A DNA stretch of 64,000 nt from the NCBI GenBank assembly GCA_963827685.1, contig CAWHBU010000004.1, positions 512,001 through 576,000 of the forward strand. Direction: 5' to 3'. The notes beneath the pieces were generated by a model, which saw nothing but the letters and a program-made list of their open reading frames with translations, was not told the origin of the DNA and searched no databases. Shown here in pieces: positions 5,018 to 24,154 of the stretch. A program made the position numbers and the translations under genes. The DNA comes from an uncultured delta proteobacterium (GTDB taxonomy: Bacteria > Desulfobacterota > BSN033 > UBA1163). Position 1 is the first letter of the stretch. Each line of letters begins with the position of its first letter.

Positions 5018-5069
5018 TTGTTTATCCCTTGATATTGAGAGGTCTATATTCCCCTTTAGGTGTTATTTT

Positions 5070-6029: not shown

Positions 6030-6045
6030 TATACTACAACCTCCC

Positions 6046-6633: not shown

Positions 6634-7190
6634 AAAAATACACCCCCAATAACAATTATCGTTTAAAATCTTGTAATACTAAGTATGTCAAAGCCCTGTT
6701 TTGGGACTATCATGAAACTATTTATTCTAATATGAAACTATTGTCAAGCCTTTTTTTAAAGAATTTTGCTTTTGACCACCTCGTAAGTGTAATATCGAAC
6801 ATTAAATTGATTTGACATTCTTACAGTTGTTTGATGTTTTGCAATAAGGGATGACCGGAAGGGCTGTTCTGGTTCAGCGCAAAAGGTAAAAGGGGACGAA
6901 AAGGTAAAAGTAAAAGGGTAAAAAAGGACGGTTCTATTTTATTGACATGGAAGATGAGGATTAATAGAATTGGGAAAGAGGGCTTGGGGGTCAAAGCTAC
7001 ATTATACACTTTGCTTGATACAGAACAAGAAGGCACTGGGCTTAAAAATAAGGGGACGGGACACGGGGACGTAATTGAAAATTGACACTTTTCCCTCTGC
7101 TTACCTAAAGGGCTCTGCGGCCAGGTCTTGCAATCACACATTTGATAAAACAAGAAACGGGGTCATCCATAAGAAAGTTGGCCGTTCCAA

Positions 7191-7228
7191 TTGCGGATTT
7201 CGGAATGCGGATTGCCGAATGCAAATTG
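7191..7228 (+). repeat. Heptamer tandem repeat (TGCGGAW/TTCGGAW)
   Basis: ttgcgga tttcgga atgcgga ttgccga atgcaaa; similar tracts at ~7652, 8581, 9147, 9233, 10017, 11610-11720, 24073, 41978. Confidence 0.85.
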
Positions 7229-7315
7229 TAAACACGAATTCCAGAGTCGTTGGATCATTTGGGATATTCCATAAGTAAGTCCTGACAGAACTCCGAAGAC
7301 AACTTAGAAATCGAG

Positions 7316-7603
7316 ATGTCAACCTTGAGGAAGAAGATTGCCGAAGCCTTGGAAGGAGAATCTCTTGATTTGCGGGAGATTTCGCAATTGTTCGGGATCA
7401 AAGAAAGAGATGCCCTCGATCATCTCATGCATATTGAAAGGTCTATCCATCCGAGACGCCTTACTGAGGAACCGGCCTTTTGCCAACAATGCGGTTTCTC
7501 TTTCAAGAAACGGACTCGCCTGAGTACTCCAAGCCGCTGCCCCGTTTGTAAGAGTGAGCATATTTCCCCACCAAGATTTAAGATCAACCCTCCAGGAAGT
7601 TGA
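7316..7603 (+). CDS. Predicted transcriptional regulator, HTH fused to Zn ribbon (COG3357-like)
   Basis: N-terminal HTH; CxxCGF...PSRCPxCKSE Zn ribbon. Confidence 0.85.
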   Translation: MSTLRKKIAEALEGESLDLREISQLFGIKERDALDHLMHIERSIHPRRLTEEPAFCQQCGFSFKKRTRLSTPSRCPVCKSEHISPPRFKINPPGS

Positions 7604-7831
7604 ACGGCTCCGGTGTCACCGGTGCAGCCCTGAAAAAGTTGGCCGTTTCAAATGCAGAATGCGGATTGCGGAATGCGGAATCTCAAACCAAGAACTGCCT
7701 GGAGCATAACCTCGTAGGTAATTAGGCAACGGGCCATTAAGGGCAACCCCTGACTGCTTTTTTCAGTCAAGTTCTTTCGATTATCCTGACTAAGTTTCCA
7801 AGTTAGCTTTTTAAGCCAGGTTAAATTCCCC

Positions 7832-7862
7832 TTGACATGAGTTAACATCAAGGTTAACATCA
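7832..7862 (+). promoter_or_regulatory. Sigma70 promoter with operator repeat for the higBA-like operon
   Basis: TTGACA (7832)-17 bp-TAACAT (7855); GTTAACATCA occurs twice (7841, 7853); GTG start 7 nt after -10 suggests a leaderless mRNA. Confidence 0.65.
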
Positions 7863-7866
7863 CTTT

Positions 7867-8214
7867 GTGGACAGAACAGTCATCTTCTATAAGACTGTTG
7901 ATGGCAAGTGTCCCGTACAAGAATTTCTCGATTCTTTGCCCGGGACGGTTGCTCAAAAGATAGTCTGGGTTCTCAGGTTATTGGAGGATATGGATATTCT
8001 GCCGGTTTTGTATTTCAAGAAGCTTTCCGGAACGGCGGATATCTAGGAGTGCAGAATTCAATTTGGCTCAAATGCCTATCGCATCTTTTGTTTCTTTTTA
8101 AATAATTCGATTGTGCTAACCCATGGATTTGTTAAAAAAAGTCAAAAGACTCCTGCCCGTGAAATAGAGAGGGCAGAGGCTTATCGAAGAGATTTCTTTA
8201 AAAGGAGGGTATAA
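7867..8214 (+). pseudogene. higB: RelE/ParE (Gp49/HigB-like) toxin interrupted by an in-frame TAG
   Basis: Full-length frame MDRTVIFYKT..CPVQEFLDSL...DI*ECRIQ...YRIFCF...LTHGFVKKSQKTP..EIERA; TAG at 8044-8046 where the family has Trp (IWE.R); abuts antitoxin ATG. Confidence 0.85.
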
Positions 8215-8490
8215 ATGAGTGACCTAACAAAATATATCAAGGAGAGGAAAAAGAGAGACAAAGCATTTTCCAAAGGGTTTGATGAAGGTTACGAGCAGTT
8301 CAAAATCGGGGTCGTGCTCCGTCAGGCTCGTGAAGAGGCGGGAATAACCCAGGAGGAGTTAGCTCGCCGTCTTAAGACCAGGAAGACTGCCATTTCAAGA
8401 ATTGAGAACCATGCAGAAGATATCAAGTTATCCACCTTAGAACGCGTTGCTGGAGCTTTAGGGAAACGCCTACAAATCAGTATTGCCTAA
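8215..8490 (+). CDS. higA: XRE-family antitoxin (HigA-like)
   Basis: HTH TQEELA...AISRIEN...LSTLERVA; directly follows toxin; AGGAGG RBS. Confidence 0.85.
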
Positions 8491-8706
8491 AAATAAGTTT
8501 GGCTACGGTGCCCCCCATAAAAAGGTCGAAGGCTCCATTGAAATAAAGATGGGGAGACGCGAAACGAAAGAAGGGGAAAAATGCGGATTTCGGATTGCGG
8601 AATGCGGAATTTATGCTGAGTGGCGAAGCACAATTTGGGGTGCTTGCATTTCCCAGTCAACTACAATAATGGGGATGGGTTCCCATTTCATGATAGGACA
8701 AAAGCG

Positions 8707-9072
8707 ATGAGCCTGATTGAAGAGATAAAGAAAGCTCTTAGCATGGAAATTAGATCGAACTCACAAGGATCGGAATATCTCGAAGCAGTGCTTGACAAGA
8801 AGGACCTTGCATTGCTTAATTCTTTATTGGAAAAACACATAGGCCTCGCCGCCAAGGAATCCAGAAAAGAAGCAAATCTGCCGAAAGAAATTGAGGAATT
8901 AGTTGATTCTTTGGGTGGTTTGCGGAAGGGGCAATCCTTTTTCTATAGGCAAGATGGTAATCGAGTGATATACGCTGCCATTTGGCCCTGGGAATCCAAT
9001 CCTAATAAGATAACATTAAAGTGTGGTGTAAGCGAGATCGGTCAGGGGTCAAAGCTTTTAGAACATCCATAA
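8707..9072 (+). CDS. Hypothetical protein
   Basis: ATG 8707 with AGGA RBS; protein-like composition; stop codon falls inside the module-delimiting repeat. Confidence 0.7.
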   Translation: MSLIEEIKKALSMEIRSNSQGSEYLEAVLDKKDLALLNSLLEKHIGLAAKESRKEANLPKEIEELVDSLGGLRKGQSFFYRQDGNRVIYAAIWPWESNPNKITLKCGVSEIGQGSKLLEHP

Positions 9073-9407
9073 AAAAGTTGGCCCTGCTCCAAATACACGC
9101 ATAGCGCATGGCAAAGATTTATACCAGGAGATGAGGGGATAGGGAAATTCGGGGTGCGGAATGCGGAGTGTGGATTGCGGAACATAAAAAGCAAGATAAG
9201 GAATAAGGAAATGGAGGGAATGAGGAGTGCCAAATGCGGAATGCTGACTGCGGAATGGGGAATTGAAAACACAAAGAGCAAACCGCAGAGAGTGAAGCGC
9301 ATAGCGCGAAGACCAGGCTGAAAGCTCAAAGCTCTCTATACCGCTGGGTCGGTTGAGCGAAATGGACATCGTATCCACAACTAAGTTGACATCAAAAATT
9401 CTGGAGG

Positions 9408-9944
9408 TTGATGATGAAGCATCACGTGAAGCGGTTGATCTTTGTTTTGGCCATCGTTCTGATAAACCAGGCTGCCCAGGCGGTTGAGATAGGCGAGGTT
9501 CCTCCAAAGGTAGAGTTAAAAGAAAAACTGGGAGGACGGCTGGATGGAAAACCTTGGAGCAGCGAAGAGTTACGGGGGAAGGTCCATGTCCTTTTTTACG
9601 TGGACCCTGATGAAAAAGATACGAACAACGATGCCAGCGAAGCTCTGCTCAGAGAGCAATTTTCCAGCGATAAGTTTCAATCGGTTGGGATCATTAACAT
9701 GGCAGCCACCTGGCTTCCCAATTTTATCATTTCTTCTGGCCTTAAAGATAAACAGAAGCGCTATCCGACAACCATTTATGTGCGGGATTACAAGAAAGTG
9801 CTGGTGAATACCTGGAAGATTGCCGACAACAGCAGTAATGTTCTCGCCTTTGACAAACAAGGGAAATTGATCTTCAGAAAAGACGGCAAGCTCACCGCGG
9901 AAGAGATCCAGACGCTCATCAAGGTCATCCGTAATCATTTGTAA
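9408..9944 (+). CDS. ytfJ: YtfJ-family periplasmic protein (thioredoxin-like fold)
   Basis: Signal peptide; WSSEELRGKVHVLFY, ..DKQGK..F.KDG.LT typical of YtfJ. Confidence 0.75.
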   Translation: MMMKHHVKRLIFVLAIVLINQAAQAVEIGEVPPKVELKEKLGGRLDGKPWSSEELRGKVHVLFYVDPDEKDTNNDASEALLREQFSSDKFQSVGIINMAATWLPNFIISSGLKDKQKRYPTTIYVRDYKKVLVNTWKIADNSSNVLAFDKQGKLIFRKDGKLTAEEIQTLIKVIRNHL

Positions 9945-10197
9945 TCTTTCTTCCGTCTCGGGTCTTCTGTGGATAGAATGAATTAGTGTCATCCATAAAA
10001 AAGTTGGGCCTATCAATTGCGGATTTCGGATTGCTGATTGCGAAATGTGGAATTTAAAAACTTCGAGAAGAAGTATCTTCCCATGTAGATCGCGGATTAG
10101 ACGCGAGTCGGATCGGTAGCCTCTTGATTTTGGTAAATCTTTGGGCCTGACTGGCTGGCTGTGTGCGCTCCCGAGCGCGCAACATGAAAAGATATCT

Positions 10198-10327
10198 ACC
10201 CCGTTAGAAATAATGCCCCGCTGTTTCGCAGTCGCGCCTGTGGCGGAATTACATTCTAGAATAATTCCGGAGGGATCTAATGCCCCGCTCGGCTTCGAGT
10301 CGTAACGACTGGAATTTCTAACGGGGT
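10198..10327. repeat. MITE/REP-like element with ACCCCGTTAGAAAT terminal inverted repeats
   Basis: accccgttagaaat ... atttctaacggggt; shorter copies at 30803-30864 and 52408-52448. Confidence 0.8.
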
Positions 10328-10731
10328 GAACCTCTCCGGGAAGCACAAATTTTCAGGCGCTTCCATTTTTCAGTCCAGAACTCCAACCTTTCTGAATGGC
10401 CTGAGGATGCTTCATCATTCTACGGGGGATGGAAAAGCAGCCTGCTCCCAACTTCTTGAAGCTTGTCAATTATCTCCCTTTTGTATCATAATTCTATCAG
10501 AAGGGCGTTCTCGGCGTTGTTTGGAATGGATTGGAAGGTTATTATGGCCATTAATGATCGAATTGACATCCACCCTAATGGCTGTATTTGTTTTTTATTT
10601 GACGGATATCGAGATCAAGAATTTGAAAAAAGTGTTCAGGGAAAGCAGGACCGACAGGATTAAAGCACATCAGAAGGGTTATTGATAAATATTTAGAAAA
10701 ATCCAAAGAGAATGAAAGGGGAGGAGAAGAG

Positions 10732-11490
10732 ATGGAAAGAAAGAAAATCATCTATTTATTTCTCTTGGTTGCTCTTGCTCTCGTTTTTTCTTCATGCCAC
10801 CCTCGTCATGTTTCAGACGTTAAACCTAACATGACGAAAGAAGAAGTGGCCTCCTTGTGGGGGAAAACACCCCTGATCACCTATGGAACGATTAATGGGA
10901 AATCTGTTGAAACCTGGGAATATCATTTTTCAAACTCCGATTCTATCTGCCGGGTTACTTTTTCTCAAGATAGAGTCGTGTCTACCCAATGTCATCCTCT
11001 GCGAGCTGGAACGTACTGGTCTTATTCACAGCCAGGGCAGAACAAAGCGGGACCTCCTCCAAGTGAACGGAGTGTGGTACGGGAGGGCTATTTTGCAATG
11101 GAGCTAGCTGAGGTGCTGAACACAGGAGAGGTTAAAAGCGAGGCGGAAGCCGAGAGCAGGTTGGCTTCGGTAGGTATTGCACCCAAGAACGGATGGATCG
11201 CAGATTATCCCTTGACGCCCGATGTTATCGGAGAGCTGCGAAATGCCGTGGGTGAAGCCGCGGATTCGGGCAAGATAGCGATGAACCGGGAGGAGGCCAT
11301 CAGGGCGTTTCAGGATCTGATGACAAGTATCGAAAGTCAGGATGCCGGAGTTGAACCGCCTCCTGGTATCCAACCCTATCCTGAGCCATATTATTACCCT
11401 GGGTTCTATTATTACCCCTACTTCCCCTATCCATACTACTTCGGTGGTTATTATCGTTTCCACCACCCCTATCGCCGTCATTGGAGGTAG
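10732..11490 (+). CDS. Hypothetical lipoprotein (BamE/SmpA-like N-terminus, Pro/Tyr-rich tail)
   Basis: Lipobox-like FSSC; MTKEEV..LWG.P...ETWEY motif; GGAGG RBS. Confidence 0.75.
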   Translation: MERKKIIYLFLLVALALVFSSCHPRHVSDVKPNMTKEEVASLWGKTPLITYGTINGKSVETWEYHFSNSDSICRVTFSQDRVVSTQCHPLRAGTYWSYSQPGQNKAGPPPSERSVVREGYFAMELAEVLNTGEVKSEAEAESRLASVGIAPKNGWIADYPLTPDVIGELRNAVGEAADSGKIAMNREEAIRAFQDLMTSIESQDAGVEPPPGIQPYPEPYYYPGFYYYPYFPYPYYFGGYYRFHHPYRRHWR

Positions 11491-11842
11491 CAAATGGCTC
11501 GGCCTTTTTTGTGCGAATTTTAGAGGGCTTCGTAGAAGGCTTCGCGGTCAGGTCTTGCAATATTACATCTATGAGTGGTTGTCATCCATAAAAAAGTTGA
11601 CCATTCCAAATTCGGAATGCTGATTGCGGAATGCGGAATTTATGCTGAGTGGCGATTTCAGATTGCAAATTCCGGATTGCAGATTGAAGTGCTGCATTGC
11701 GGATTGCGGAATGCGGATTTAATGAAGAAACAATTGAATGGGTGATTGGGTAAATCGTTGAGTCGTAGAGTTAATGAGTCGTTGAGTAGTAGTTGACGGA
11801 ATGAGGTGAGGTTCGTTTGGGAGACAATTTGGAGTTAAAGCA

Positions 11843-13126
11843 ATGAGGGTCCTTCTCATTTCCGCCAACACGGAAAAGATAAATATGCCCACCTTGCCCC
11901 TCGGTCTGGCGTGTGTGGCCGCTGCCACCCAAAGAGCAGGGCATGAGGTGGCCATGGTGGATTTGATGACCGAAAAGGATGCGCCGTCGGTCCTCAAAAG
12001 GGCTATCGAAGGATTTCATCCTGATCTGATCGGGCTATCTGTGAGGAACATTGATGACCAGAATATGGAACATCCCAGATTCTTATTGGATCCGGTTAAA
12101 GAAATCGTAGCGGGTTGTCGAAGTCTTTCAGGAGCCACGATTGTTTTGGGTGGAGCGGGATACAGTGTATTCCCGGAAGGCGCCCTGTCCTTTTTAGGTG
12201 CAGATATGGGAATTCAAGGTGAGGGAGAAGTGGTTTTTCCGGACTTGATAGAGCGGATAGAGCGGGGTGCCAGCCTTCTGGGATTGCCGGGTCTTTATCT
12301 GCCCGGTCGGAGCCATCCGTGTAAAAGAATGTTTGAGAAAAATTTGGATAGACTGCCCCTTCCTAATGCCGACCTTTGGCCAGCACCCTCTCAAAAAGAG
12401 AAAGTCTGGATGCCAGTTCAGACAAGACGTGGATGTCCTTTGAACTGTAGTTATTGTAGCACCGGGGTCATTGAGGGTCGGATGGTCCGTAGACATTCTC
12501 CAGAAACTATTGTCAAGTGGATTGCTCGGTGGCGGAAAGCTGGGGTTGATCAGTTCTACTTCGTCGATAATACCTTCAACCTCCCGGCCTCCTATGCCAA
12601 GGAAGTCTGCCGTAAGCTCATCGATCGAGACCTGAATATCAGATGGTGGAGCATCCTTTACCCTATGCATGCAGATAAAGAACTGGCAGCGTATATGGCC
12701 AGAGCCGGCTGCGAGCAAGTGAGTATGGGATTTGAAAGTGGCTCTGAACGAATCCTGAAGAATATGAACAAAAGATTTCACCTTAAAGAGGTGCGACAAA
12801 TCTCAGAGATATTATCTGAGCAAGGGATAAGGCAAATGGGATTTTTATTACTTGGAAGTCCAGGTGAAACAAGGAAGTCCGTTGAAGAAAGCCTTGCTTT
12901 TGCTGACTCCCTTAAATTGGACACCTTGAAAATTACTGCAGGCGTTCGGATTTATCCGCATACCGTTCTGGCAAAGAAGGCCGTAAAGGAGGGCATGATT
13001 GCTTCTCACGATGAGCTACTTTTCCCCCAATTTTACCTGGCAAGAGACCTTGAGAATTGGTTGCCTGATATGTTGAAAAATTGGGCAATGGCAAGACCTC
13101 ATTGGATGATTCCAGATTACAGTTGA
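11843..13126 (+). CDS. B12-binding domain radical SAM protein
   Basis: PLGLA..A B12 domain; TRRGCPLNCSYC CxxxCxxC; FVDNTFN; GFESGS. Confidence 0.92.
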   Translation: MRVLLISANTEKINMPTLPLGLACVAAATQRAGHEVAMVDLMTEKDAPSVLKRAIEGFHPDLIGLSVRNIDDQNMEHPRFLLDPVKEIVAGCRSLSGATIVLGGAGYSVFPEGALSFLGADMGIQGEGEVVFPDLIERIERGASLLGLPGLYLPGRSHPCKRMFEKNLDRLPLPNADLWPAPSQKEKVWMPVQTRRGCPLNCSYCSTGVIEGRMVRRHSPETIVKWIARWRKAGVDQFYFVDNTFNLPASYAKEVCRKLIDRDLNIRWWSILYPMHADKELAAYMARAGCEQVSMGFESGSERILKNMNKRFHLKEVRQISEILSEQGIRQMGFLLLGSPGETRKSVEESLAFADSLKLDTLKITAGVRIYPHTVLAKKAVKEGMIASHDELLFPQFYLARDLENWLPDMLKNWAMARPHWMIPDYS

Positions 13127-13179
13127 CGTATCAAATTCTGATGATTGTGTTATTGAGAAAAACAGGTATCCATTCTTAA

Positions 13180-14800: not shown

Positions 14801-15074
14801 TTAACATGAGACACGGGAAAAACGGTGCCCTCCACAAAAACTTAGCCCGCTCAAATGCGCGCATAGCGAAGAGCGCAAGGCGCATCGCGTACAGAACATT
14901 ATTCAAGAATCAAACCGCACGGCGCATGGCGCAAAGCGGGCAGAAGGGAGATTGGGAATCAAAGCACCATTTCATAAGACCAACACCATGATGGATGAAG
15001 GTGCGTATTTGATGAGAGGGTGGATGAATGCACTTAAATCACATCGATGATTTATTAAAAGAAAGGAGGATGTT

Positions 15075-15530: not shown

Positions 15531-15689
15531 GATGGCCCGAGGGTGGAGAGGAGAGAGCAGAAGGTGGATAAGAACTTAAGAAGTTCAGAGTAAGAGACAA
15601 GCCGAAAGCTGATACCTGAGGACTGAGAAGCGAAGGGTAAACAATTCTATTGCAGAATTCAGAAACCGCCTGCCATGAGAGGAGGTGCA

Positions 15690-15809
15690 ATGACAATGGA
15701 AGACCTTGTCACCTGGCTTTGTAATATTGAAGACCTTGCCTGCAATTTCCATAAACGGGATGTCATCAATATCTATTCCCTGGAAGGAAGGATAAAAAGA
15801 AATGTTTGA
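15690..15809 (+). pseudogene. Short ORF / probable N-terminal gene remnant (MTMEDLVTWLCNIEDLACNFH...)
   Basis: Strong AGGAGGTG RBS, 39 codons, overlaps next start. Confidence 0.35.
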
Positions 15810-16260
15810 AACTGCTATTGATATCCTGCGTGCTGCGATTGTAGGGGCGATATTTTTATATTTGAGGTCGATGCGGGGAAAAGAGAGTTTCCACTTTGGA
15901 AAGGGCTGGATTTTAATAATGATTGGCTTTGGACTCCTCTTCTTTGGTGCGGTTTTGGATATCACCGATAGTTTTCCCAGTTTAAACAAATATGTCATCA
16001 TCGGTAAAACGAAATATGAGGCGTTTCTAATGGAGGTGGTCGGGTACCTTTTTGGTTTTGTCTTTGTTGCCATAGGCTTCTGGAAGTGGATACCTGCTAT
16101 TATCGCCCTCAGAAAAGAGAAGATGGAATTGGGCAGGACCCGTGAGGAGCTGGAATTGAAAGTTGAAAAACTCACAGTTGAACTCAATGCGGTTCGCGCA
16201 CAGCTTGAACAGAGTAAAACTCGGTTACATGAAGTTTGCGCCTCCTTGCAAGAGGGCTGA
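15802..16260 (+). CDS. Hypothetical membrane protein (3 TM plus coiled coil; sensor-like N-terminus)
   Basis: Hydrophobic helices followed by heptad-rich ELELKVEKLT.EL segment. Confidence 0.7.
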   Translation: MFETAIDILRAAIVGAIFLYLRSMRGKESFHFGKGWILIMIGFGLLFFGAVLDITDSFPSLNKYVIIGKTKYEAFLMEVVGYLFGFVFVAIGFWKWIPAIIALRKEKMELGRTREELELKVEKLTVELNAVRAQLEQSKTRLHEVCASLQEG

Positions 16261-16486
16261 ATAAAAAGATGGGGGGATGCGGGAGATAATGCAGTGGGGA
16301 AATAAGGGGATGCGATGACGGGGAGATGACAGAGTTTGAGAATTAAGAATGGAGGGATTAAGGGATTGAGGAATTCAATGGCGGAGTGAGGCATGCTGAA
16401 TTCAAAAGGTCAGAAGGTCAAGGGGTAAACTTTGAGATTGAGATATTGGGTCCTCCATAACAAGTTGGCCGTCCCGCGGCTGTCAT

Positions 16487-17773
16487 CTATTGAGGATCTC
16501 CAGTTGATTCCTCTTTGACCTCCGAAATCGTAGGGGCTGAAGGTTCGGAAAGATCCCGGACCTTTCCGTGCTCGTCACTCACCATAGGGCATAATGGATA
16601 TCCGGCATGCGTCTCAATAATTATTCCACAACTCCCATCCGAGAGGACAACCCGCCGCCCAGGAGCCAATACATTCAACAATAATAGAAACCTGGAGACA
16701 TATTCCTTGTGAAGTCTTCCGGACAAGGCATCCTTGATCAGAATCGTTGTGGCTTTGGCCACGGTCAAAGCCGGCCGATAGGGGCGAACGGTGCGAAGGG
16801 CATCGTAGACATCGGCAACGGCTACCAGAAGGCTCGCAAAATGCAGCGTGTATTGCGGTAGGTTCTTCGGAACTTTCGGATATCCAGATTGATTGGCCCC
16901 CATGTGGTGCTGGTAGGCCACTACCGGGAGGAGCGGGTTCGACGATTCCACACCCGGGATATCGAGGAGGAGCCGTGCGCCACAGAAGGGATGTTTCTCC
17001 ATGAGGAGCCACTCATTCGGTTCGAGAGGACCGTTGCGGTTCAGGATCTCTTTAGGAACCTCCTTCTTCCCGAGATCGTGGCACAGAGCGGCCATGGCGA
17101 TCGCGTTGACCATCTCGTCGGAAACCTGGAGTGCTTGTGCCAGGGCCGACGAAAGAACGCAGACATTGAGGGCGTGGGTAAAGGTGTAGTCATCAAAGTC
17201 CTTCATTTCACGGATGGGCTCAAAAAGTTCTCTGCCAACGGCGAGACGGGCCACAATTGCGCACACGACCTCGCGAGCCCGAACGAGACCTTCGGGCTTT
17301 TTGGATTCAAGATCGGAAAGGACTTCCTGAGCCTCAGCAAGAAATCCCATATATCCCGTAACAGCCCGGGTGATGACCGAATCGGGTTCCACCCGTCTTT
17401 CCAGTTTAAGGGAGCCGGCAACAATTTTCGAACTTCGGTAGGGTATCCGACTCTTGGAGATAACATTTTCAATCCAGGCTGTCAGATCGTCCTCACCCGT
17501 ATCGGCCTCGATTTGAACGCTCTCGAATCCGAGTTGCTGGAGTGATTGAAAGAGAGCGCGAAAGGACACAGGAAGGGTTTCTATCTTCCGGTCCTCGACA
17601 ATCGTATCATTTCCGAGGAAAGTGATCCTCACAGGCCGTCCCCATTGCGCAAGCTTCTGGGAAGCTTGCCGAGCCGATTGGAGAACCTGCTTGGTCCCTG
17701 AAGGGTAGATTCGTCGCACCCGAAAGAGAGCTCCAAGAGCGTGAAGAAAATAGTCAAGGGCATTCTGGGCCAT
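16487..17773 (-). CDS. HD-GYP domain c-di-GMP phosphodiesterase
   Basis: YTFTH..NV, HDLGK, HH....GYP, VADVYDAL...RPYR. Confidence 0.9.
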   Translation of the reverse strand: MAQNALDYFLHALGALFRVRRIYPSGTKQVLQSARQASQKLAQWGRPVRITFLGNDTIVEDRKIETLPVSFRALFQSLQQLGFESVQIEADTGEDDLTAWIENVISKSRIPYRSSKIVAGSLKLERRVEPDSVITRAVTGYMGFLAEAQEVLSDLESKKPEGLVRAREVVCAIVARLAVGRELFEPIREMKDFDDYTFTHALNVCVLSSALAQALQVSDEMVNAIAMAALCHDLGKKEVPKEILNRNGPLEPNEWLLMEKHPFCGARLLLDIPGVESSNPLLPVVAYQHHMGANQSGYPKVPKNLPQYTLHFASLLVAVADVYDALRTVRPYRPALTVAKATTILIKDALSGRLHKEYVSRFLLLLNVLAPGRRVVLSDGSCGIIIETHAGYPLCPMVSDEHGKVRDLSEPSAPTISEVKEESTGDPQ

Positions 17774-19580
17774 TGCTTTTCTCCTTTTTTCCGAGATCCC
17801 GGAGGCTCTGCTCGGTCTGTGATCTTCTTTCCTGTTCCCTCTGCGGGTTAGAGAGCGAGGTCTGAACTCTCTTCAAAGCCTTGAGGGCTTCCCTTACGAC
17901 CTTTGGATGGTGATGGTTTGAAAGAACCTGGAGGGTCGGAAGACCCTGGGGGAGCCCTTGCTGTCCAAGAACGATGGCGAGATTACGGGCTACATACCAA
18001 GGGCTGGTGCGGGACTTCGTCACAAATGTTGGCGTTGCGGCCGAAGAGAAGCAGGAGAGGAGGCCTACGAGAAAATGGCGCGTAGAGATCTTTTTTTCTT
18101 CCGCGAGCGCCTTTAGCGCTGTGTCGAGGAGACACCTTTCGTGGTTCACGGCGAAGGTGACCAGTGCCTGCTGTTCTGCGAACGACGTTTTGGCAAGGCC
18201 CGAGAGGCCCTTTTGAAACAAATCCTTAACAAAAAAAGGGACAGAATCGAGCAGACCCGGGAATGTTCGATCCACAAGCTTGACGAATCCGAGGACACGG
18301 AATGGGCCAAGTTGCTCCGCCCGGAGCCTGATGCGGTCGAGGAGCCTTTTCCTAAAATCCTCTTCTTCCCCCAGAGCCAATGCCAGGATCAACTGGTCCA
18401 GGTATTCATCAGGTTCCTCGTGCAAAATCAGCGAGTCCTCCCCGGGGCCCGTCGAGGCAGAAGGATTCATCAGGAATTCGAGCGAGTCGGAGTACTCCGT
18501 ATCCATAAAAGGGTTTTCCGTCAAATTGATAATAAAGTCCTCTATCGTCTTCCACACCTCCGCTGCAAAGCCCCCGTCTTTCCCGGGAGAAAGCCTGGAC
18601 CTGACCAATGAAAGAAGTTCATCGGTTTTGGTGAGCGGGGCAAAACGGCGGTATACCTCTACAAACCTTCGAGTCCCTTGGTTACCCATCGCAGCGAGGC
18701 CTGCGAGTAGATCGACAAATCGTTCTCCATCAATCTCCCTCAGAAGAGAGCTCTTTCCAGGCCCCAATCGCTTGGACTCTCCTTCATGTCCCACAATACG
18801 CACGAGATCCCTGGCAGAGACGCACTTTCCCATTTGAGCCAGGTAGTCAAGGATGTCTTCGCGCTGTCTATTCGGGAGAAGGGACAAGGCATCCTCCAGA
18901 CGCTCTCCCAACATCAGCAGCAAACTCGAGAACCCTTCTGAATCGCCATGCCCCGATTCCGTCCATTCGTTCTTGGCGGCTTCCCAGAATTCGTCGGAGG
19001 CGAGGGCTGAGGCAAGCTGTTCAGGGGGTGCTTCGTGACTCATCAAAGCGAGCCAGGCATAACGACGCCTTTGTTCCGGGTTGTCCTCGGAATCTTTAAC
19101 CGTATTCGTGATCCCGCTATGGATCTCATCGAGCTTGAGGGGTTCAACGTCAATGGCGAAGACTTCGGAGCGGAGCTTTCGTCGCAGTTCATCCCCTTCC
19201 AACCTGGGAACGGACATCACTTTGGCGAAAGTCCAGACATCCTCGAGGGTCGCATCTTTCGTCCAGGATATTTTGAGCACTTTTCGCGCGTGAAGCATCG
19301 AAGCGAGACCACTCGCCTTTCCGGCGACAAATTCTCCCGACACGACCAGTTCCTTGGAGGTGATGCCAATCATGAGAGAGCCTTGGGAATCGAGGGGGGC
19401 AGAGTTAAGAGCGTTCTTAGCGACTTCCAGAAGGGTCGGATGCTTGGCCGGGTAAACGCGTACGCCGCGGATGAGGTGCAACAGGTTCAAAGCGAATGCC
19501 TCAACCTTTTTGGAGAGCAAAGAGACTTCTCTATTTTTCGGTCCAGCCATGGCGTCCATAGAAGAGACCGTAGTCCGCAT
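17754..19580 (-). CDS. HEAT-repeat-containing protein (partner of HD-GYP gene)
   Basis: N-terminal YP..HP; C-terminal WYVARNLA..LG ... H..PKV.REAL HEAT motifs; overlaps HD-GYP start. Confidence 0.8.
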   Translation of the reverse strand: MRTTVSSMDAMAGPKNREVSLLSKKVEAFALNLLHLIRGVRVYPAKHPTLLEVAKNALNSAPLDSQGSLMIGITSKELVVSGEFVAGKASGLASMLHARKVLKISWTKDATLEDVWTFAKVMSVPRLEGDELRRKLRSEVFAIDVEPLKLDEIHSGITNTVKDSEDNPEQRRRYAWLALMSHEAPPEQLASALASDEFWEAAKNEWTESGHGDSEGFSSLLLMLGERLEDALSLLPNRQREDILDYLAQMGKCVSARDLVRIVGHEGESKRLGPGKSSLLREIDGERFVDLLAGLAAMGNQGTRRFVEVYRRFAPLTKTDELLSLVRSRLSPGKDGGFAAEVWKTIEDFIINLTENPFMDTEYSDSLEFLMNPSASTGPGEDSLILHEEPDEYLDQLILALALGEEEDFRKRLLDRIRLRAEQLGPFRVLGFVKLVDRTFPGLLDSVPFFVKDLFQKGLSGLAKTSFAEQQALVTFAVNHERCLLDTALKALAEEKKISTRHFLVGLLSCFSSAATPTFVTKSRTSPWYVARNLAIVLGQQGLPQGLPTLQVLSNHHHPKVVREALKALKRVQTSLSNPQREQERRSQTEQSLRDLGKKEKSNGPECP

Positions 19581-20056
19581 GAATCATCGTACCGTCTATG
19601 CAGATGTGCGGAATGCGAACTTGTCTGCAATGTCTGACTAAGCAAGTTCAATGCCAGAGTGGGAGAAACCGCTCAAGTCTTTGTATCAATAGGGTATATT
19701 CAATCTGTACCCTTATCTCTAGAACCGGGGGGTGACCTTTTTTGTCGCCAAGAACGCCTCAGAGGTGGGTTTGGCGATGCCCAAAAAGACTGCAGAGGGC
19801 AGGGCGAACAGCATAAATGCATAAACCGCTTTCCTTTCTTCACCCTCCGTACAACCTTATTCGCTGCTTCTTCTCTCTTCGTGATCTCTAATTTTCCCAT
19901 TGTTTCAAATGATGGGCCTGGGACGAAATCAACAACGTGAGTTACATTCTGTGCTCCGAAGCCGGTCTTTTTTGACAAGGAACTCCGTTTCTCTTATATT
20001 CCACCTAAGCCAAAGCGAGTTCCTACCATTTTTTGATTGGGTTTGAGGAGGTTATA

Positions 20057-20416
20057 ATGAGAGTTGTCAAAATCAGTGAAATAAAAAAGGAATCACTCAG
20101 CGGCCCCCTTTTTACCGCCCCGGATGTGACGAGACAGGTCCTTTTGCCGGACAGTAAAGAGTTCAGCACCAATGTTGTAAACTTCGGGAAAGGGGTTCGC
20201 AACAAATTTCACGCCCACGACAGCGAACAAATCCTGGTGGTCACTTTCGGAAAAGGGATGATTGCCACAGAAACCGAGGAGAAAGTGATTGCCCCGGGAG
20301 ATGTTGTGATTATTCCCGCCGGCAAGAAACACTGGCACGGTTCGACCAAAGACTCGGAGTTCTCGCACATTTATGTGTCTCGTTTGGGAAGTAAGTTAAC
20401 TCAATTGGAAGAATGA
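20057..20416 (+). CDS. Cupin domain protein
   Basis: GAGGAGG RBS; H.H..EQIL.V..G.G and PGDVV.IPAG..HWHG cupin motifs. Confidence 0.9.
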   Translation: MRVVKISEIKKESLSGPLFTAPDVTRQVLLPDSKEFSTNVVNFGKGVRNKFHAHDSEQILVVTFGKGMIATETEEKVIAPGDVVIIPAGKKHWHGSTKDSEFSHIYVSRLGSKLTQLEE

Positions 20417-20473
20417 AATCCGGAGCCGGTCATAAAAAGTTGGTCCTCTTCAAACAGGAGAAAGGGGGCATGC

Positions 20474-21310
20474 GTGATTGATTTGAACCTGATTGGTAAG
20501 AAGTACGGCCCGATCCCCTTCGCGTACACATGGAAGGACGTGGTCCTGTATGCCATAGGTATCGGTGCGCAGGCAGAAGAACTCCCCTTTGTCTACGAGA
20601 ACGCCAAAGGCGGGTTAAGGGTCTTCCCCAGCTTCAGCGTCGTGATGGGCATCCGTCTATTTATTGAAATCTTTAAGGATATGCGGGTGGACCTTTCCAG
20701 ATTCATTCATGGGGAACAGGCTATAAAGCTTTTTCGCCCGATTCCACCCGAAGGGAAGACCCTCATTGAAGGTCAGATTGCAAATATCTATGACAAGGGC
20801 AAAGGGGCGGTGATTGTCTGGCGGATGAAGTTCATGACAGAGGGGGGTGAGCCACTGGGCGAAACCGAGAGCGGCATTTTCTATGTGGGCGAAGGGGGCT
20901 TTGGCGGGGACCCCGGGCCCAAGGCGGAAGTGCTTGACCCTCCTCAAGGGGCCAAGCCGGATTTCACAGCCTCCTATTTTATTCCCGAAAACCAAGCGGC
21001 CCTCTATCGCCTCAACGGCGACGTTAACCCCCTGCACGTGGACCCTGATTTTGCTAAGAGGGGTGGTTTTTCCCGCCCGATCCTCCACGGTCTTTGTACC
21101 TACGGCTACGCGGTGAGAGCCATTTTATACAAGGCCTGCGATGGAGATGTGAAGCGATTCAAGGAGTTCAAGGCCCGTTTTTCTGGAGTGGTCTATCCCG
21201 GCGACACTCTCGTGACAGAGGGATGGATGGATAAGGGCGGGCGTTACCTGATGCAGTCCCGCACTGACCGCGGGGTGGTCCTCAGCCAAGCCTATGCCAG
21301 GGTTGACTAA
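20474..21310 (+). CDS. MaoC/hydratase-2 family (R)-enoyl-CoA hydratase, double hot-dog
   Basis: LYAIGIGA, HGEQ, YRLNGD.NPLH.DP..A..GGF..PILHGLC. Confidence 0.9.
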   Translation: MIDLNLIGKKYGPIPFAYTWKDVVLYAIGIGAQAEELPFVYENAKGGLRVFPSFSVVMGIRLFIEIFKDMRVDLSRFIHGEQAIKLFRPIPPEGKTLIEGQIANIYDKGKGAVIVWRMKFMTEGGEPLGETESGIFYVGEGGFGGDPGPKAEVLDPPQGAKPDFTASYFIPENQAALYRLNGDVNPLHVDPDFAKRGGFSRPILHGLCTYGYAVRAILYKACDGDVKRFKEFKARFSGVVYPGDTLVTEGWMDKGGRYLMQSRTDRGVVLSQAYARVD

Positions 21311-21606
21311 TAAAAGATAAGGGAAACACCACGAAACGGCAGGCAGGGATGGCAGAGTTTATATTAGCGTTGCAAGAAAAGGCAGTCAAGTGTGCTTCCA
21401 GACCTTTAGAATGCGGTTTTTTTGGCATGTTTTATGGGTAACATGCGATGTCACCCGGGGTGACGTTTGCCATTTGCTGGACGGGCGGAGCAGCGAGACG
21501 TTTAAACGTGCCGCTCTAAAGCTCCTCCAGCACCCCCGACTGCCTTTCAGAAGGTTTCTTATGCAACTGGCGGGTTTATATTCTGTTTAAGGTGAGGGTT
21601 CATTCG

Positions 21607-21750
21607 ATGGCTTCATCGTGCGAGGAATATCGTTACCAGCAGCAGCTGCTTGCCTTAAAGAAACGTTTGGCTGAGGATAAGCTGATCCCGGAAGAACGGG
21701 AAGAGATCGAGAGGCTGGTTCAGGAGCTGGAAAGAAAATTGAAAATGTGA
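21607..21750 (+). CDS. Small hypothetical coiled-coil protein (47 aa)
   Basis: MASSCEEYRYQQQLLALKKRL...ERKLKM; GAGG RBS; fits the gap before mltA; below ORF-track cutoff. Confidence 0.6.
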   Translation: MASSCEEYRYQQQLLALKKRLAEDKLIPEEREEIERLVQELERKLKM

Positions 21751-21785
21751 ACGTGTAACAGTGACAGAGAAGAACAGGATTCTCG

Positions 21786-22997
21786 ATGACGATGAAAGGT
21801 GTTAGAAAGGGTTTTCCCGTCGCATTCCTTTTTCTGACTGTGGCGATGGCTGTCAGTTGCTATCCTGTACTGAAAAAAGAGGCACAGCAGCCGGAGGAAG
21901 CTCTCAGGCAGGTCCGCTTCCTTTCTCCCGAGTTCCGCGATGACATGGATCGTGACTCCTTGATGCTGGCCGTCAGAAGAAACATGGAATACCTGGGTCG
22001 CCTCGGTCCTGAGACAGTATTTCACTACGGGCCAGACGATTTTACCGTCCAACAGGTGCGTGAGAGCCAAGAGACTTTCCTGGATCTCGTGGCAAAAGGA
22101 CTTGATCCAGATCATCTGAGCAGAGAGATCAGGGAGAAGTTTCGGGTTTACCGGGCTACGGGTCGGGTTGGAGACAGAAGGGTACTCTTCACAGGGTATT
22201 ATGAGCCCATTTATGAAGGAAGCCTGGCTTCTGATGAGGTCTTCAAGTATCCGCTGTATCGTTCGCCTGACGATCTGATAAGAATTGACCTGTCTCTCTT
22301 CAGTGAGAAGTTCAAGGGAGAGAACATCGTCGCGAGAATCGAAGGCAAGAAGGTCCTGCCTTACTACTCCAGGTACCAGATTGAGGCAGAAAGGGTGCTG
22401 GAGGGAAAGGGTCTTGAGATCGCGTGGCTAAAAGACCCGTTGGATGTGACTTTTCTCCACATCCAGGGATCGGGCAGGCTGAGGCTCCCCGACGGAAAGG
22501 AACTCTTGGTTCACTACCAGGCCTCCAATGGCCGACCCTACCGGAGCATCGGGCGGTATATGATCGAGAAGGGGTTTCTTGCGCGTGAAGAGATGTCCAT
22601 GCAAGCGATGAGGAGATACTTGACCGAGAACCCGGAGATCCTCGATGAGGTTCTGAATTATAATCCCTCGTACGTGTTCTTTCGGCAGGTGGAGGACGGC
22701 CCTTTAGGCAGTCTCGGTGTCCTCCTGACCCCGGGAAGGTCGGTTGCCTTAGATTCCAGGATTTTCCCAAAGGGAGCCCTCGGGTTCATCGTGTGCCACA
22801 AACCCCTTATGAATGACCGGGGAGAGATCATTGGGTGGAATAAATTCTATCGTTTTGTCATAAATCAAGACACGGGTGGGGCGATCAAAGGGGCTGGAAG
22901 AGCAGATATCTTCTGGGGAAGCGGCTCCTACGCCGAGTTGACGGCAGGGCACTTGCGGCATGAGGGGGACCTGTACATTTTGATCAAGGAGCCTTAA
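21786..22997 (+). CDS. mltA: Membrane-bound lytic murein transglycosylase A
   Basis: Lipobox AVSC; FTGYYEP, HIQGSG, NPSYVFF, QDTGGAIKG..RADIFWG. Confidence 0.95.
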   Translation: MTMKGVRKGFPVAFLFLTVAMAVSCYPVLKKEAQQPEEALRQVRFLSPEFRDDMDRDSLMLAVRRNMEYLGRLGPETVFHYGPDDFTVQQVRESQETFLDLVAKGLDPDHLSREIREKFRVYRATGRVGDRRVLFTGYYEPIYEGSLASDEVFKYPLYRSPDDLIRIDLSLFSEKFKGENIVARIEGKKVLPYYSRYQIEAERVLEGKGLEIAWLKDPLDVTFLHIQGSGRLRLPDGKELLVHYQASNGRPYRSIGRYMIEKGFLAREEMSMQAMRRYLTENPEILDEVLNYNPSYVFFRQVEDGPLGSLGVLLTPGRSVALDSRIFPKGALGFIVCHKPLMNDRGEIIGWNKFYRFVINQDTGGAIKGAGRADIFWGSGSYAELTAGHLRHEGDLYILIKEP

Positions 22998-23182
22998 GCG
23001 AGAAAGGATTCAGGGTCAAAGCTAAAGAATAAACTTTGAACGTTTGGAAAGGCCAGTTAGCTACAGGAAGAGCTGAGGTGTCATCCATAAAAAAGTTGGT
23101 CAGTGGTTCAGGGGCCAGGCATTGGTAATCAGGTATTAGTCTAAGAATCGGTCAACGGTGATCTGATTTTCGGGGTAGGTTG

Positions 23183-23959
23183 ATGAAAGACATTTATGAA
23201 GAGATGATGGTTGCCTCTCGAGTGATTGCCGCCTCTTTTCCTCAACCCAGCTTTTATGTTTGCTGCAGAGAGCCGCTTGACCTGTCTCGCTCCCTTTTTG
23301 ATGAGGACGCACAGGTTATGAAATGCCGCACCCTCGTCCTCAACGAGCTAAAGGAGGACCTCGGCCATGGAATCGATCACTGTGAAAAGGTGGCCTTGGA
23401 AGCCGGGGCCTTGGCTTATATCGAAGGGGGGAGGCTTTGCCTGGAGGAATCTTTGAGGCGCGAAGCTTGCCTCCTGGCCCAGATCGCCGGCCTCCTGCAT
23501 GACCTGCGGCGTAATGAAAAAGAGCACGCCAAGGCGAGCGCCTCTGCGGCCTCGAGAATGTTACAGGAGTTCTCCGTCTTCCCTAAAAAAGGAGAATACA
23601 TCGTGCAGGCCATTGCTAACCACGAGGCCTTCGTTGAGCCAAAGAGAGTTCGTTCACCTGTGGGCCAGATGATCAGCGATGCGCTCTACGATGCTGATAA
23701 ATTCCGCTGGGGCCCGGACAATTTTACCCAGACCCTGTGGCGAATGCTCCGCTCCTCAAGGGCGCGCATCGCGCCCCTGATTCGCAGGTTTCCGAAGGGA
23801 ATGGAAGGAATCTCTGGGATCAAAGAGACCTTCCGCACGGAGACGGGGAAGATCTATGGACCGGAGTTCATCGAGTTGGGGCTTAAGATCGGGGGGGAAA
23901 TCTACCTGTTTCTCGAAGAAAGATTCTCTGACGAACTGCAGCAAGAGAAGACAGAATGA
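23183..23959 (+). CDS. HD-domain metal-dependent phosphohydrolase
   Basis: GHGIDH..KV, LLHD, ANH, LYDADK motifs. Confidence 0.85.
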   Translation: MKDIYEEMMVASRVIAASFPQPSFYVCCREPLDLSRSLFDEDAQVMKCRTLVLNELKEDLGHGIDHCEKVALEAGALAYIEGGRLCLEESLRREACLLAQIAGLLHDLRRNEKEHAKASASAASRMLQEFSVFPKKGEYIVQAIANHEAFVEPKRVRSPVGQMISDALYDADKFRWGPDNFTQTLWRMLRSSRARIAPLIRRFPKGMEGISGIKETFRTETGKIYGPEFIELGLKIGGEIYLFLEERFSDELQQEKTE

Positions 23960-24154
23960 GAATTCTTTGGTGGCCTCCAACGCATGGAGCCGCCGGGGCA
24001 AAGGCTACGGTCAGATTTGGGAAATTGAGGTTTGTTGCCAGCTATAAAAAAGTTGGCCGTTTCTAAATGCCAATTTCGGATTGCGCCTGCCCTGTACCCT
24101 GTTAGGTTCGGGGCCTGCGGCAGGAAGACATATTCTAAACTCCTCGCTTTCCAA

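Follow-up and report, generated by a model that had tools for sequence, protein, structure and literature searches.

Same-oriented junction sites between small exchangeable gene units in an uncultured delta proteobacterium and its family: a probable integron-like system of cassette arrays

A short motif with the core GGTGTCATCCATAAAAAAGTTGGCC recurs between the genes of a 64,000-nucleotide stretch of DNA from an uncultured delta proteobacterium (hereafter, the window), where it is found throughout positions 7159-24058, always on the + strand. The window corresponds to G000:C4:512001-576000, i.e. to a part of contig C4 of a genome of 5.23 Mb in 14 contigs (G000); the relatives that were fetched through one protein of this genome are titled as metagenome-assembled genomes of Thermodesulfobacteriota, Deltaproteobacteria and Syntrophaceae. 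That these junction sites recur is an observation, and its statistical support is strong. Their most probable explanation, in our judgement, is that of family-specific, integron-like cassette arrays, which would be built by site-specific recombination on double-stranded DNA, with a recombinase that is encoded elsewhere and acts in trans.

Junction sites, arrays and the exchange of modules

The initial annotation of the window listed eleven copies of the motif on the + strand and none outside the array; all eleven are present, with the coordinates of their cores refined here, and a scan with a profile built on 34 genome copies has likewise placed no copy elsewhere in the window. Seven of the copies are strong (7159, 7620, 9059, 9985, 11578, 23077 and 24034; E<0.01 in the window), two are weak in the profile scan (16441-16473, E 0.76, and 20434-20453, E 5.6) and two are degenerate, i.e. 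the copies at 8507 and 14824, which the profile misses at E<=10 and which look decayed, as judged by eye only. The 25-mer, searched with at most 3 mismatches, has four matches in the window, compared to none in 100 shuffles.

In the whole genome, the 20-base core occurs in 11 exact copies and in 45 copies with at most 3 mismatches; the profile (E<=0.02 for the genome-wide count) gives 46 matches, 38 of which are located within four arrays that occupy about 62 kb of the 5.23 Mb (about 1.2%), the remaining eight being singletons or pairs. Each of the four arrays has a single orientation:

C1, 261.0-266.0 kb, + strand: array of 5 sites
C4, 504.1-536.1 kb, + strand: array of 12 sites, with the window covering its right part
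C5, 55.4-70.2 kb, - strand: array of 12 sites
C7, 180.0-190.6 kb, - strand: array of 9 sites

With at most 2 mismatches, the core is found in 14 of the 14 other genomes of the genus, in 20 of 24 of the family and in none of 16 genomes of other families, and the reversed pattern, used as a control, has no match in any genome. The near-complete genome G010 (2 contigs) holds 30 matches, mostly in same-oriented clusters; among 17 loci fetched from relatives, all 15 that have several sites are uniform in orientation, as are 41 of the 42 multi-site contigs in a metagenome set (at least 120 contigs with the site, 80 of which, amounting to 330 kb, were analysed). The sole opposed pair is found on contig L167, with sites at 253 (+) and 924 (-), and may be an inversion or a chimera. 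Viral contigs contain no exact match to the 20-mer or to an 18-mer, and give no lead to a phage attP. In the genome of the window, in G010, in the other relatives and in the metagenome contigs alike, the sites form genome-specific clusters of like orientation and are not scattered; neither of the two outcomes that were to speak against the initial reading (copies dispersed in both orientations, as of an ordinary repeat, or a gene order kept in relatives with no breakpoints at the motif) is seen. Repetitive extragenic palindromic sequences (REP), bacterial interspersed mosaic elements (BIME) and miniature inverted-repeat transposable elements (MITE) are dispersed, usually palindromic and found in both orientations, whereas the sites described here are clustered, have one orientation per array and form no hairpin.

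The letters of the site have been compared in an alignment of 128 sites from seven genomes, anchored at the G of GTT (position 0). Conservation is sharp from -18 to +6 and falls steeply on either side; the A-run and the G are near-invariant (92-99%), with positions -6 to 0 being the most invariant, although orthologous genes of the same genomes are only about 75-90% identical. The tail GTTYCAAAT, which the initial annotation had included in its consensus, is not general; conservation is weak beyond +6.

In the genome of the window, 41 of the 46 sites are preceded by a gene of the same orientation, mostly at a distance of less than 100 bp, and 30 of the 46 are followed by one. The spacing from site to site has a median of 1124 bp (quartiles 781 and 1891, n=106, with four spacings below 300 bp), and 172 of 225 open reading frames (ORFs) inside arrays are co-oriented with the sites; the arrays occupy a few hot spots of the chromosome, which lie within islands of toxin-antitoxin and defence genes. 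The sites of the window closely follow stop codons, as had been noticed, with gaps from stop codon to core of 16, 16, -14, 40, 87, 7, 79 and 74 bp; the negative gap belongs to the ORF at 8620-9072, the stop codon of which lies within the core, so that this gene indeed takes its TAA from the site. The site at 16446-16470 holds the orientation of the array between two minus-strand genes, which shows that the polarity belongs to the array and not to the neighbouring gene.

In order to describe the units between the sites, 23 array loci from seven genomes, oriented by their sites, have been compared. Of 109 inter-genome alignments of at least 200 bp, eight have their end (offsets +1 to +15) and three their start (offsets -16 to -9) at a site in both genomes, while random placement of the sites (500 times) gives means of 0.04 ends and 0.02 starts, with a maximum of 1. 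Most of the other alignments stop some tens of bases before the site, because the stretch from the stop codon to the core is variable. When pairs of sites are classified by the flank that they share (40 nt at >=80% identity), 35 genome pairs share the upstream flank only, 125 the downstream flank only and 7 both, and the corresponding numbers of metagenome pairs are 32, 55 and 3; the downstream-only class is inflated by the heptamer repeats that are described in the last section.

The two halves of the site follow their own flanks. Sites with the same upstream flank have left halves that are closer to each other (2.19 vs 3.65 mismatches, a difference equalled in 0 of 1000 random sets) and right halves that are not (1.88 vs 1.70); sites with the same downstream flank have closer right halves (0.64 vs 1.69), with left halves at 4.28 vs 3.65. 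By position, linkage to the upstream flank extends to about -10 and linkage to the downstream flank begins at about +2, the bases in between being the near-invariant CATAAAAAAGT; the switch falls between -9 and +1 of GTT. The metagenome set shows the same linkage at the outer positions, its core being near-invariant by ascertainment. A variant right half (GTGGGGC and close forms) accompanies one ORF-less unit in 7 of 7 cases from G000, G004 and G010, where it sits behind different upstream cassettes that have ordinary left halves. The sites border exchangeable modules, as had been proposed, and the linkage switches at or just left of GTT; such half-site linkage is what recombination at a fixed point near G/TT would predict. 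In integrons, the 7-base core is GTTRRRY and the crossover takes place between G and TT; the end of the present core, GTTGGCC, fits six of these seven bases, with the linkage switch located to the above interval rather than to a single base.

ORF-less units of 150-185 bp between two sites are seen at C5:65344-65557 and C7:190364-190552 of the genome of the window, and also in G004 and G010; they open with GGTAAT.CGGGCG...TGAGTCAATA, usually after the variant right half GTGGGGC.

A different function for the motif is that of a 3'-end element of island genes (e.g. in protein binding, termination, RNA stability or silencing), with the modules being reshuffled by homologous recombination; we regard this as unlikely, albeit less so than the other alternatives below. 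The position of the site shortly behind a co-oriented gene would suit such an element, as would three observations that are presented in the third section: whole sites between resident core genes that are still neighbours, a deletion in genome G003 that has used a different short repeat, and the lack of a recombinase linked to the arrays. On the other hand, the right half-site travels with the downstream unit, so that the element would be split between two modules, an argument against regarding the entire 25-mer as a 3'-end signal that belongs to the upstream gene; also opposed to this function are the site at 16446-16470, with its array polarity beside opposite-strand genes, the absence of a hairpin, a terminator shape or a match in Rfam, and the confinement of the copies to a few arrays, where they do not track a gene class genome-wide. 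Moreover, 19-25 bp of identity are generally a poor substrate for homologous recombination.

Hairpin attC sites, dif and other known systems

Integrons are the textbook platform, and so far nearly the only one, for stockpiling and reshuffling single-gene cassettes, and their defining trait is the attC site, which is folded from a single strand into a hairpin of 57-141 nt and is conserved in structure. The sites of the arrays have been folded as single-stranded DNA and compared with shuffles: eight segments of the window fold at z-scores of -1.17 to +1.03, and the 128 sites (90 nt upstream plus the core) have a mean z of +0.13 (top strand) and +0.17 (bottom strand), with 2-4% of them below -2. 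Eleven canonical attC sites from relatives, taken as controls, reach z-scores of -1.3 to -7.3; they were pre-picked by energy, so that the contrast is somewhat flattered. Scans of the genome of the window have found no reverse-complement partner of the core near the sites or within the arrays. The initial view that the motif is not an attC palindrome holds, therefore, with respect to both the inverted partner and the hairpin signal.

The genus has a classical integron of its own. A crude attC finder (the core consensus combined with fold energy) detects no cluster in the genome of the window, and detects arrays beside full intI genes elsewhere in the family. In one of these, from the same genus (G013:C108; L026 4789-8673), a full intI has behind it three hairpin attC sites with the form GCCTAAC...GTTAGGC (L026 6365-6453, 7029-7095 and 8554-8611); its attI, which ends in ...TTAATTGTTCGGC (with TTAATTGTT... 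at its end), is unlike the motif, which the initial annotation had likened to the attI of class 1 and, in its left 11 bp, to a XerC arm. The genus thus holds an integron with sites that are unrelated to those of the arrays. Matches to intI over the curated cut-off occur in 17 of the 41 genomes that were sampled from the family, while five further genomes of the genus have none. The genome of the window retains a remnant (C3:782919-783275) that covers the C-terminal 119 of 315 profile positions, scores 191 bits against a cut-off of 265 and has unrelated neighbours, and a similar remnant is found in G010 (C1:720662-721045). The former remnant (L001 1492-1857, minus strand) is richer in GC than its surroundings and lies beside a toxin-antitoxin pair and a tetratricopeptide repeat (TPR) fragment. 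The contig of another intI, G011:C108 (L028 1-1492), breaks exactly at the attI crossover, ...TTAATTGTTAG, and in the family many contigs that bear intI stop about 500 bp ahead of this gene.

These results bear on the idea that the arrays are ordinary clusters of attC sites lacking integrases (CALIN), with the motif as the L'-R' end of an attC peculiar to the species, which IntI would recombine in the form of folded single strands. The layout is that of integron cassettes, GTTGGCC is one base off the R' consensus GTTRRRY, the linkage switches at about G/TT, IntI is common in the family, with a remnant in the genome of the window, and one array with the motif lies 5.6 kb from a full intI (in G011:C108). 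Nonetheless, we consider this idea improbable: the sites have neither an inverted partner nearby nor reverse-strand matches within the arrays, they fold no better than shuffles, the integron of the genus uses canonical hairpin attC sites and another attI, and a copy of the motif is absent at 14 of the 15 intI loci that were fetched.

Xer/dif sites have also been considered. Their format, i.e. two inverted arms of 11 bp around a spacer of 6-8 bp, is not that of the motif, and a palindrome built on the left arm of the motif finds no true match in the genome of the window; a dif search has found a separate site: TCTGATAAGATATATTATGTTAAC, a 24-base sequence with palindromic arms at C2:737719-737742 of the genome of the window, away from every array. 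It is present as a single copy in 17 of 25 genomes from three families (at C1:519774 in G010) and never twice. The absence of alternating orientation, by which the initial annotation had distinguished the motif from pdif modules, is borne out.

Compared to integrons and CALIN, the arrays share head-to-tail, short, mostly single-gene and co-oriented units of about 1 kb; a site at the 3' end of the unit, with only about 6 bases at the start of the next; a linkage switch at about the G/TT, within a 7-base end similar to the core of integrons; and a content of toxin-antitoxin genes, many hypotheticals and some ORF-less units. As in CALIN, there are several integrase-less arrays per genome, the contents of which vary between species at a fixed locus. 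Unlike those of integrons, the sites are 25 bp long, non-palindromic and conserved letter for letter across genera, without an R''/L'' partner, and no attI, promoter (Pc) or intI heads any of the arrays.

Another parallel in the site itself is offered by attI and attG, which are double-strand, non-hairpin sites cleaved at G/WT, with attG being about 18 bp long, cleaved mid-site and documented as a target of promiscuous insertion by integron integrases (10.1101/2022.09.11.507474). The motif resembles them in forming no hairpin and, in the reading preferred here, in acting as a double-strand site; however, an integron has one attI, and attG sites are loose genomic targets that need an attC partner. 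Arrays that have such a site at every junction and no attC are not described in the available portion of that source (10.1101/2022.09.11.507474), and our literature search, which covered material outside subscription journals and supplements and some sources in part, has returned work on integrons, CALIN, attG, pdif and islands and no account of non-attC cassette arrays or of integrons in Syntrophales-like bacteria.

As in Xer/dif modules (pdif of Acinetobacter and integrative mobile elements exploiting Xer, IMEX), short double-strand sites bound small modules and the recombinase, there the housekeeping Xer, is encoded elsewhere; integration of such modules at a resident site regenerates sites. 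The motif differs from them in that it has no second inverted arm and no alternating orientation, and in that its arrays are located away from the dif-like site. Tandem accretion, as in cis-mobilizable and integrative and conjugative elements (CIME/ICE), composite staphylococcal cassette chromosomes (SCC) and tycheposons, likewise involves direct, same-orientation att sites and modules most of which have no recombinase of their own and would rely on one provided in trans; these modules are, however, several kb long or larger, their arrays begin at a defined attB, located in a tRNA or a conserved gene, and a recombinase is carried by at least one member, whereas the units described here are of about 1 kb, with no attB-bearing gene found and no member with a recombinase.

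It is possible, though we put it forward only tentatively, that the arrays represent a previously undescribed capture system parallel to integrons: cassettes of about 1 kb with an asymmetric, double-strand site of 25 bp and a crossover of the G/TT type, at several hot spots of the chromosome throughout a family of Thermodesulfobacteriota, moved by a recombinase encoded outside the arrays rather than by canonical IntI on attC hairpins, and able to plant sites between resident genes, thereby turning core genes into cassettes. If this is true, it would be a second architecture, with the layout of an integron and a plain sequence-specific site; cassette stockpiling would have evolved more than once, or recombination of the integron type would be able to rely on double-strand sites alone. 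How integron cassettes originate has long been an open question, and the window would offer a rare view of cassette birth, in that a conserved block of the relatives is here separated by sites and reordered. The fixed 25-mer also makes the cassettes recoverable from metagenomes by a simple pattern, as in the single scan that gave the at least 120 contigs mentioned above, and this opens the cassette pool and the search for the enzyme to direct tests.

Proposed mechanism, resident genes and recombinase

In the double-strand reading that we prefer, the 25-bp core, GGTGTCATCCATAAAAAAG|TTGGCC, would serve as the junction site for small mobile cassettes, which form one pool across the family. An integrated cassette would open with the right half-site (TTGGCC and a few weakly conserved bases), continue with a body that is usually one co-oriented gene, and close with the left half-site (GGTGTCATCCATAAAAAAG), from a few to about 90 bp past the stop codon; cassettes would be stacked head to tail, in one orientation, at a few hot spots. 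A circular cassette with one whole site would recombine with a resident site, leaving a hybrid site on either side, by conservative recombination on double-stranded DNA; the reaction would be carried out by an enzyme, rather than by homologous recombination, and the recombinase would be encoded at another place of the genome or by other members of the community. Our best guess is a tyrosine recombinase, because the genome of the window has no serine recombinase and no resolvase-type match. The core may then be divided into three parts: on the left a strong arm (GGTGTCATCCA, about 11 bp), next to it an overlap rich in A (TAAAAAAG, about 8 bp) and on the right a weaker arm (TTGGCC...). This division is suggested by the pattern of conservation, by the place at which linkage switches and by the rule that tyrosine recombinases require identical overlap regions in both partner sites.

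The variation of such arrays at one place in the chromosome can be followed at the locus of the C1 array, the flanks of which are syntenic in G010, G004, G012, G002 and G011. The orientation of the sites relative to these flanks is identical in all genomes; in G004 and G012, the upstream flank runs on into an array on the same contig, and the interval between the flanks varies in the remaining genomes as follows:

G000: 11.5 kb, 6 sites
G010: 37 kb, at least 9 sites; the interval includes an AbiEii pair, RadC and a type I restriction system
G002: 27.5 kb, 3 sites, all of them weak
G011: 1.1 kb, no site

The cassettes of G000 and G010 at this hot spot have no alignment of at least 250 bp in common. 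The interval of G010 also contains a thiolase, and none of these proteins is a recombinase; the empty allele of G011 (L149 3534-4671, in G011:C8) contains ORFs of 223 aa and 98 aa and no copy of the motif.

The window array differs in that a part of it consists of genes that are resident in relatives. Its sites and genes, with the matches that support them, are:

7159-7183, +: junction site, strong (GGGGTCATCCATAAGAAAGTTGGCC; profile E 7.6e-9)
7316-7603, +: cassette gene, PF0610-like helix-turn-helix (HTH) with Zn ribbon, 95 aa (Pfam)
7620-7644, +: junction site, left half diverged (profile E 0.0038)
7908-8105: small ORF preceding the HTH_3 gene, no Pfam match
8215-8490, +: cassette gene, HTH_3 (antitoxin-like), 91 aa (Pfam)
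8507-8531, +: decayed site, by eye only (absent from the profile matches)
8620-9072, +: cassette gene, hypothetical, 150 aa, stop codon inside the site; also within arrays of 4 other genomes
9059-9083, +: junction site, strong (profile E 2.7e-6)
9408-9944, +: cassette gene, YtfJ family, 178 aa (Pfam)
9985-10009, +: junction site, strong (profile E 1.3e-8)
10326-11490, +: two-ORF cassette, a 119 aa hypothetical and a 252 aa protein with a weak BamE match (Pfam)
11578-11602, +: junction site, strong, right half GTTGACC (profile E 3.1e-7)
11843-13126, +: B12-binding radical SAM gene, 3' end broken by an insertion sequence (IS); core gene in relatives (Pfam)
13176-14804, +: IS element, DUF772 and DDE transposase, 524 aa, TTAA duplication; outside the system
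14824-14848, +: decayed site, by eye only (absent from the profile matches)
15075-16394, mixed strands: two hypothetical ORFs, 151 aa (+) and 269 aa (-), no Pfam match
16446-16470, +: junction site, one base short in the A run, between two minus-strand genes (profile E 0.76)
16487-19580, -: gene pair HD_5 (HD-GYP-like) and HEAT-repeat (Pfam)
20033-20416, +: cupin gene; core gene in relatives (Pfam)
20428-20445, +: junction site, left half shortened (profile E 5.6); G003 has a site at the same place
20474-22997, +: genes for a MaoC dehydratase and MltA, adjoining without a site; both are core genes in relatives (Pfam)
23077-23101, +: junction site, strong (profile E 6.1e-7); the MltA-HD spacer of relatives is site-free
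23180-23959, +: HD-domain gene (weak HD match), flanked by two sites; absent in the closest relative, G003
24034-24058, +: last junction site of the array, left half diverged (profile E 1.4e-6)

The gene list of the initial annotation agrees with Pfam, except that its "HigBA" pair is supported by half: the HTH_3 antitoxin-like protein is confirmed and the HigB partner has no Pfam match. In six relatives (G010, G004, G005, G006, G009 and G012), MltA, HD, a stretch of about 2.7 kb, cupin, MaoC, radical SAM and DUF3786 follow each other in one order, at 78-87% identity; in the genome of the window, the order is radical SAM, two hypotheticals, HD_5-HEAT, cupin, MaoC-MltA, HD and DUF3786, with sites at the joints. 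The HD_5/HEAT pair is found on other contigs in relatives, with a site-like sequence ahead of the pair. In the closest relative, G003 (88-93% identity), sites are present at the same places and the HD unit (cassette 23024-24042) is missing. The description of the window array as a gene-capture locus stands, therefore, in part only: its right third (radical SAM, cupin, MaoC, MltA and HD) is a resident block in the six relatives and not captured foreign DNA, and sites thus also arise between resident genes. To judge by the gene orders, in the lineage of G000 and G003 sites would have been planted between neighbouring core genes, and the block reordered afterwards; the insertion of ORF-less units at secondary sites might be the source of the planted sites.

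The spacer between MltA and HD measures 183 bp, with a whole site, in the genome of the window, and 15-381 bp, site-free, in relatives; about 140 bp of it, including the whole site, are absent in the six relatives. This could be the mark of a small, non-autonomous insertion element (MITE-like or ORF-less) that inserts after genes in permissive islands, with the arrays being its insertion hot spots and not stacks of captured genes, and the ORF-less units between two sites, as well as a conserved element of 85-110 nt that precedes the core in 7 of 7 copies of that element (last section), would also be compatible with it. We give such an element little credence: no terminal inverted repeats or target duplications are seen around the sites (read by eye), random insertion does not give the uniform orientation within arrays, only the 25-bp core is common to all copies, with different flanks, and gene-plus-site units move together.

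Returning to cassette recombination on double-stranded DNA, a number of observations weigh against it, and we present them together. With respect to the resident genes, the block of the six relatives is site-free, save for a weak match in G010, 1.7 kb upstream of MltA; in the genome of the window, whole sites lie between genes that are still neighbours, i.e. MltA/HD and cupin/MaoC, and plain insertion of ready-made cassettes does not explain sites between core genes. In G003, the HD deletion has its junction outside the core, within a box upstream of it (GGGTCAAAGCT / GGGGCAAAGGCT), and at the orthologous hot spot the empty allele of G011 has no site, so that there is no obvious primary site. 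With respect to the site, core sites of tyrosine recombinases normally have two binding arms around an overlap of 6-8 bp; here the presumed arms, as read from the consensus, do not form an inverted repeat, and such asymmetry is unusual for a simple core. Homologous recombination between repeats of 25 bp would also link the half-sites to their own flanks. With respect to the enzyme, the genome of the window has 19 Phage_integrase matches, none of which lies within 100 kb of an array; among 435 ORFs in the 23 array loci, the sole recombinase is the IntI of G011:C108, which is located 5.6 kb past the downstream end of the array and is convergent with it; no recombinase is found in the 330 kb of metagenome contigs; and G000 and G010 hold only truncated intI genes. 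Lastly, neither circular junctions nor clean excision joints are seen in the contigs of four public runs (X1-X4, from three studies) that were aligned to window positions 5000-24900; contig joints at sites (e.g. 9084->11581, 9038->23075 and 7143->23079) have sides of 20-30 bases, reflect the shared motif and are no evidence.

That the recombinase is not encoded beside the arrays had been anticipated in the initial annotation, and none adjoins them in the genome of the window, in its relatives or in the metagenome contigs. The candidates that are left are two Xer-like proteins common to G000 and G010 (C2:664.6-665.5 kb and C5:208.3-209.1 kb in G000), an IntI acting in trans, such as that of G011 or G013, and a multi-copy pair of 394 aa and 297 aa. 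This pair of adjacent tyrosine recombinases is seen in three identical modules (C1:55.9-57.6, C2:701.3-702.9 and C4:735.1-736.8 kb), and two degenerate copies of the motif (C4:726247 and 729102) lie 6-9 kb from the module on C4.

Two other groups of candidates have been set aside. The recurrent ORF families at the edges of arrays, i.e. ORF6N-like proteins of about 190 aa (5 members, all upstream, at 4 arrays), nucleotidyltransferase/HTH pairs, histidine kinases and an IS3 transposase, include no recombinase. A tyrosine recombinase of about 200 aa that consists of the catalytic domain only is found at E<=1e-40 in 3 of 15 genomes of the genus (G000, G004 and G011) and, with this query, is absent from the site-rich G010 and G007, so that its distribution gives no support. 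Its three copies in the genome of the window, at C4:172.6 kb (L005 1450-2058), C6:132.8 kb (L006 1147-1743) and C2:692.5 kb, have small unrelated neighbours.

The insertion sequence, repeats and tRNA genes

The IS element at 13176-14804 is absent in two of the public runs (X2 and X3, from two studies), where a contig joint 13175->14801, with 255 bases on its shorter side, confirms the IS-free arrangement that had been assumed for the radical SAM gene and indicates a recent arrival of the IS; this is the only solid joint among the public-run contigs. The genome of the window has at least 13 further near-identical copies of the IS (97-98%), three of them in other arrays with the motif. Contigs of X3 and X4 cover both sides of 16952-19607 (the HD_5/HEAT pair) and not its inside, with no contig joining the two sides, which is not evidence of absence. 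In X1, a loose end of 255 bases behind 9087 continues with the sequence that follows two C5 sites of the genome of the window, and this single contig hints at another cassette order.

The sequence after the site varies: about a quarter of the sites are followed by tandem heptamers (TGCGGAA/TGCGGAT), others by repeats of the GCGCATA type or of the GGGGAGAT type. In the window, heptamer repeats are seen at 7185-7235, 7650-7690, 8579-8616, 9141-9270, 10011-10060 and 11608-11725, and they fill many intergenic spacers. As arm-type sites, the heptamers have been rejected, since one 13-mer has 145 matches in the genome, 26 of them in arrays, i.e. it is enriched and not specific; these repeats are dispersed over the whole genome and form a feature distinct from the site. 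An upstream 5' box (GGGGTCA / GGYCAGGTCTTG) has been rejected as a second half-site: GGGGTCA precedes 22 of the 128 sites (about 17%) and the box is also common elsewhere in the genome, partly beside IS ends, so that it is no general part of the site, although the deletion in G003 has its junction there. A promoter has also been set aside, on inspection by eye: TGGCC...TTGC is one base too long for the sigma-54 rule, its TTGC belongs to the heptamer repeats, which only about a quarter of the sites have, and no conserved -10 of a sigma-70 promoter is seen.

The conserved element mentioned above (GGGGTCAAAGCTACATTATACACTTTG...GGGATTTAGGT, 85-110 nt) is continued by the core without a gap in all 7 copies; it contains a part of the core as a direct copy (TCCATAAAA) and a small stem (CAAAG...CTTTG). 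Its copies in the genome of the window are:

C1:260938-261056
C4:17600-17713
C4:504031-504107
C4:507400-507505
C5:62305-62424
C7:188624-188784
C7:190336-190497

A GC-rich palindromic insert of about 40 nt (of the type GCGCCTGCCTGC...GGCAGGGA) breaks the heptamers at C4:505405-505470, at C5:58380-58443 and at window positions 24085-24130, and looks like a separate miniature repeat family.

A search of window positions 1-30000 against Rfam at E<=0.1 returns two tRNAs only. These are tRNA-Ala(GGC) at 28032-28107 (-) and tRNA-Leu(CAA) at 28260-28348 (+), located 4 kb past the last site; by eye, neither has any sequence in common with the site, and the tRNA-Ala stretch is 100% identical in three relatives.

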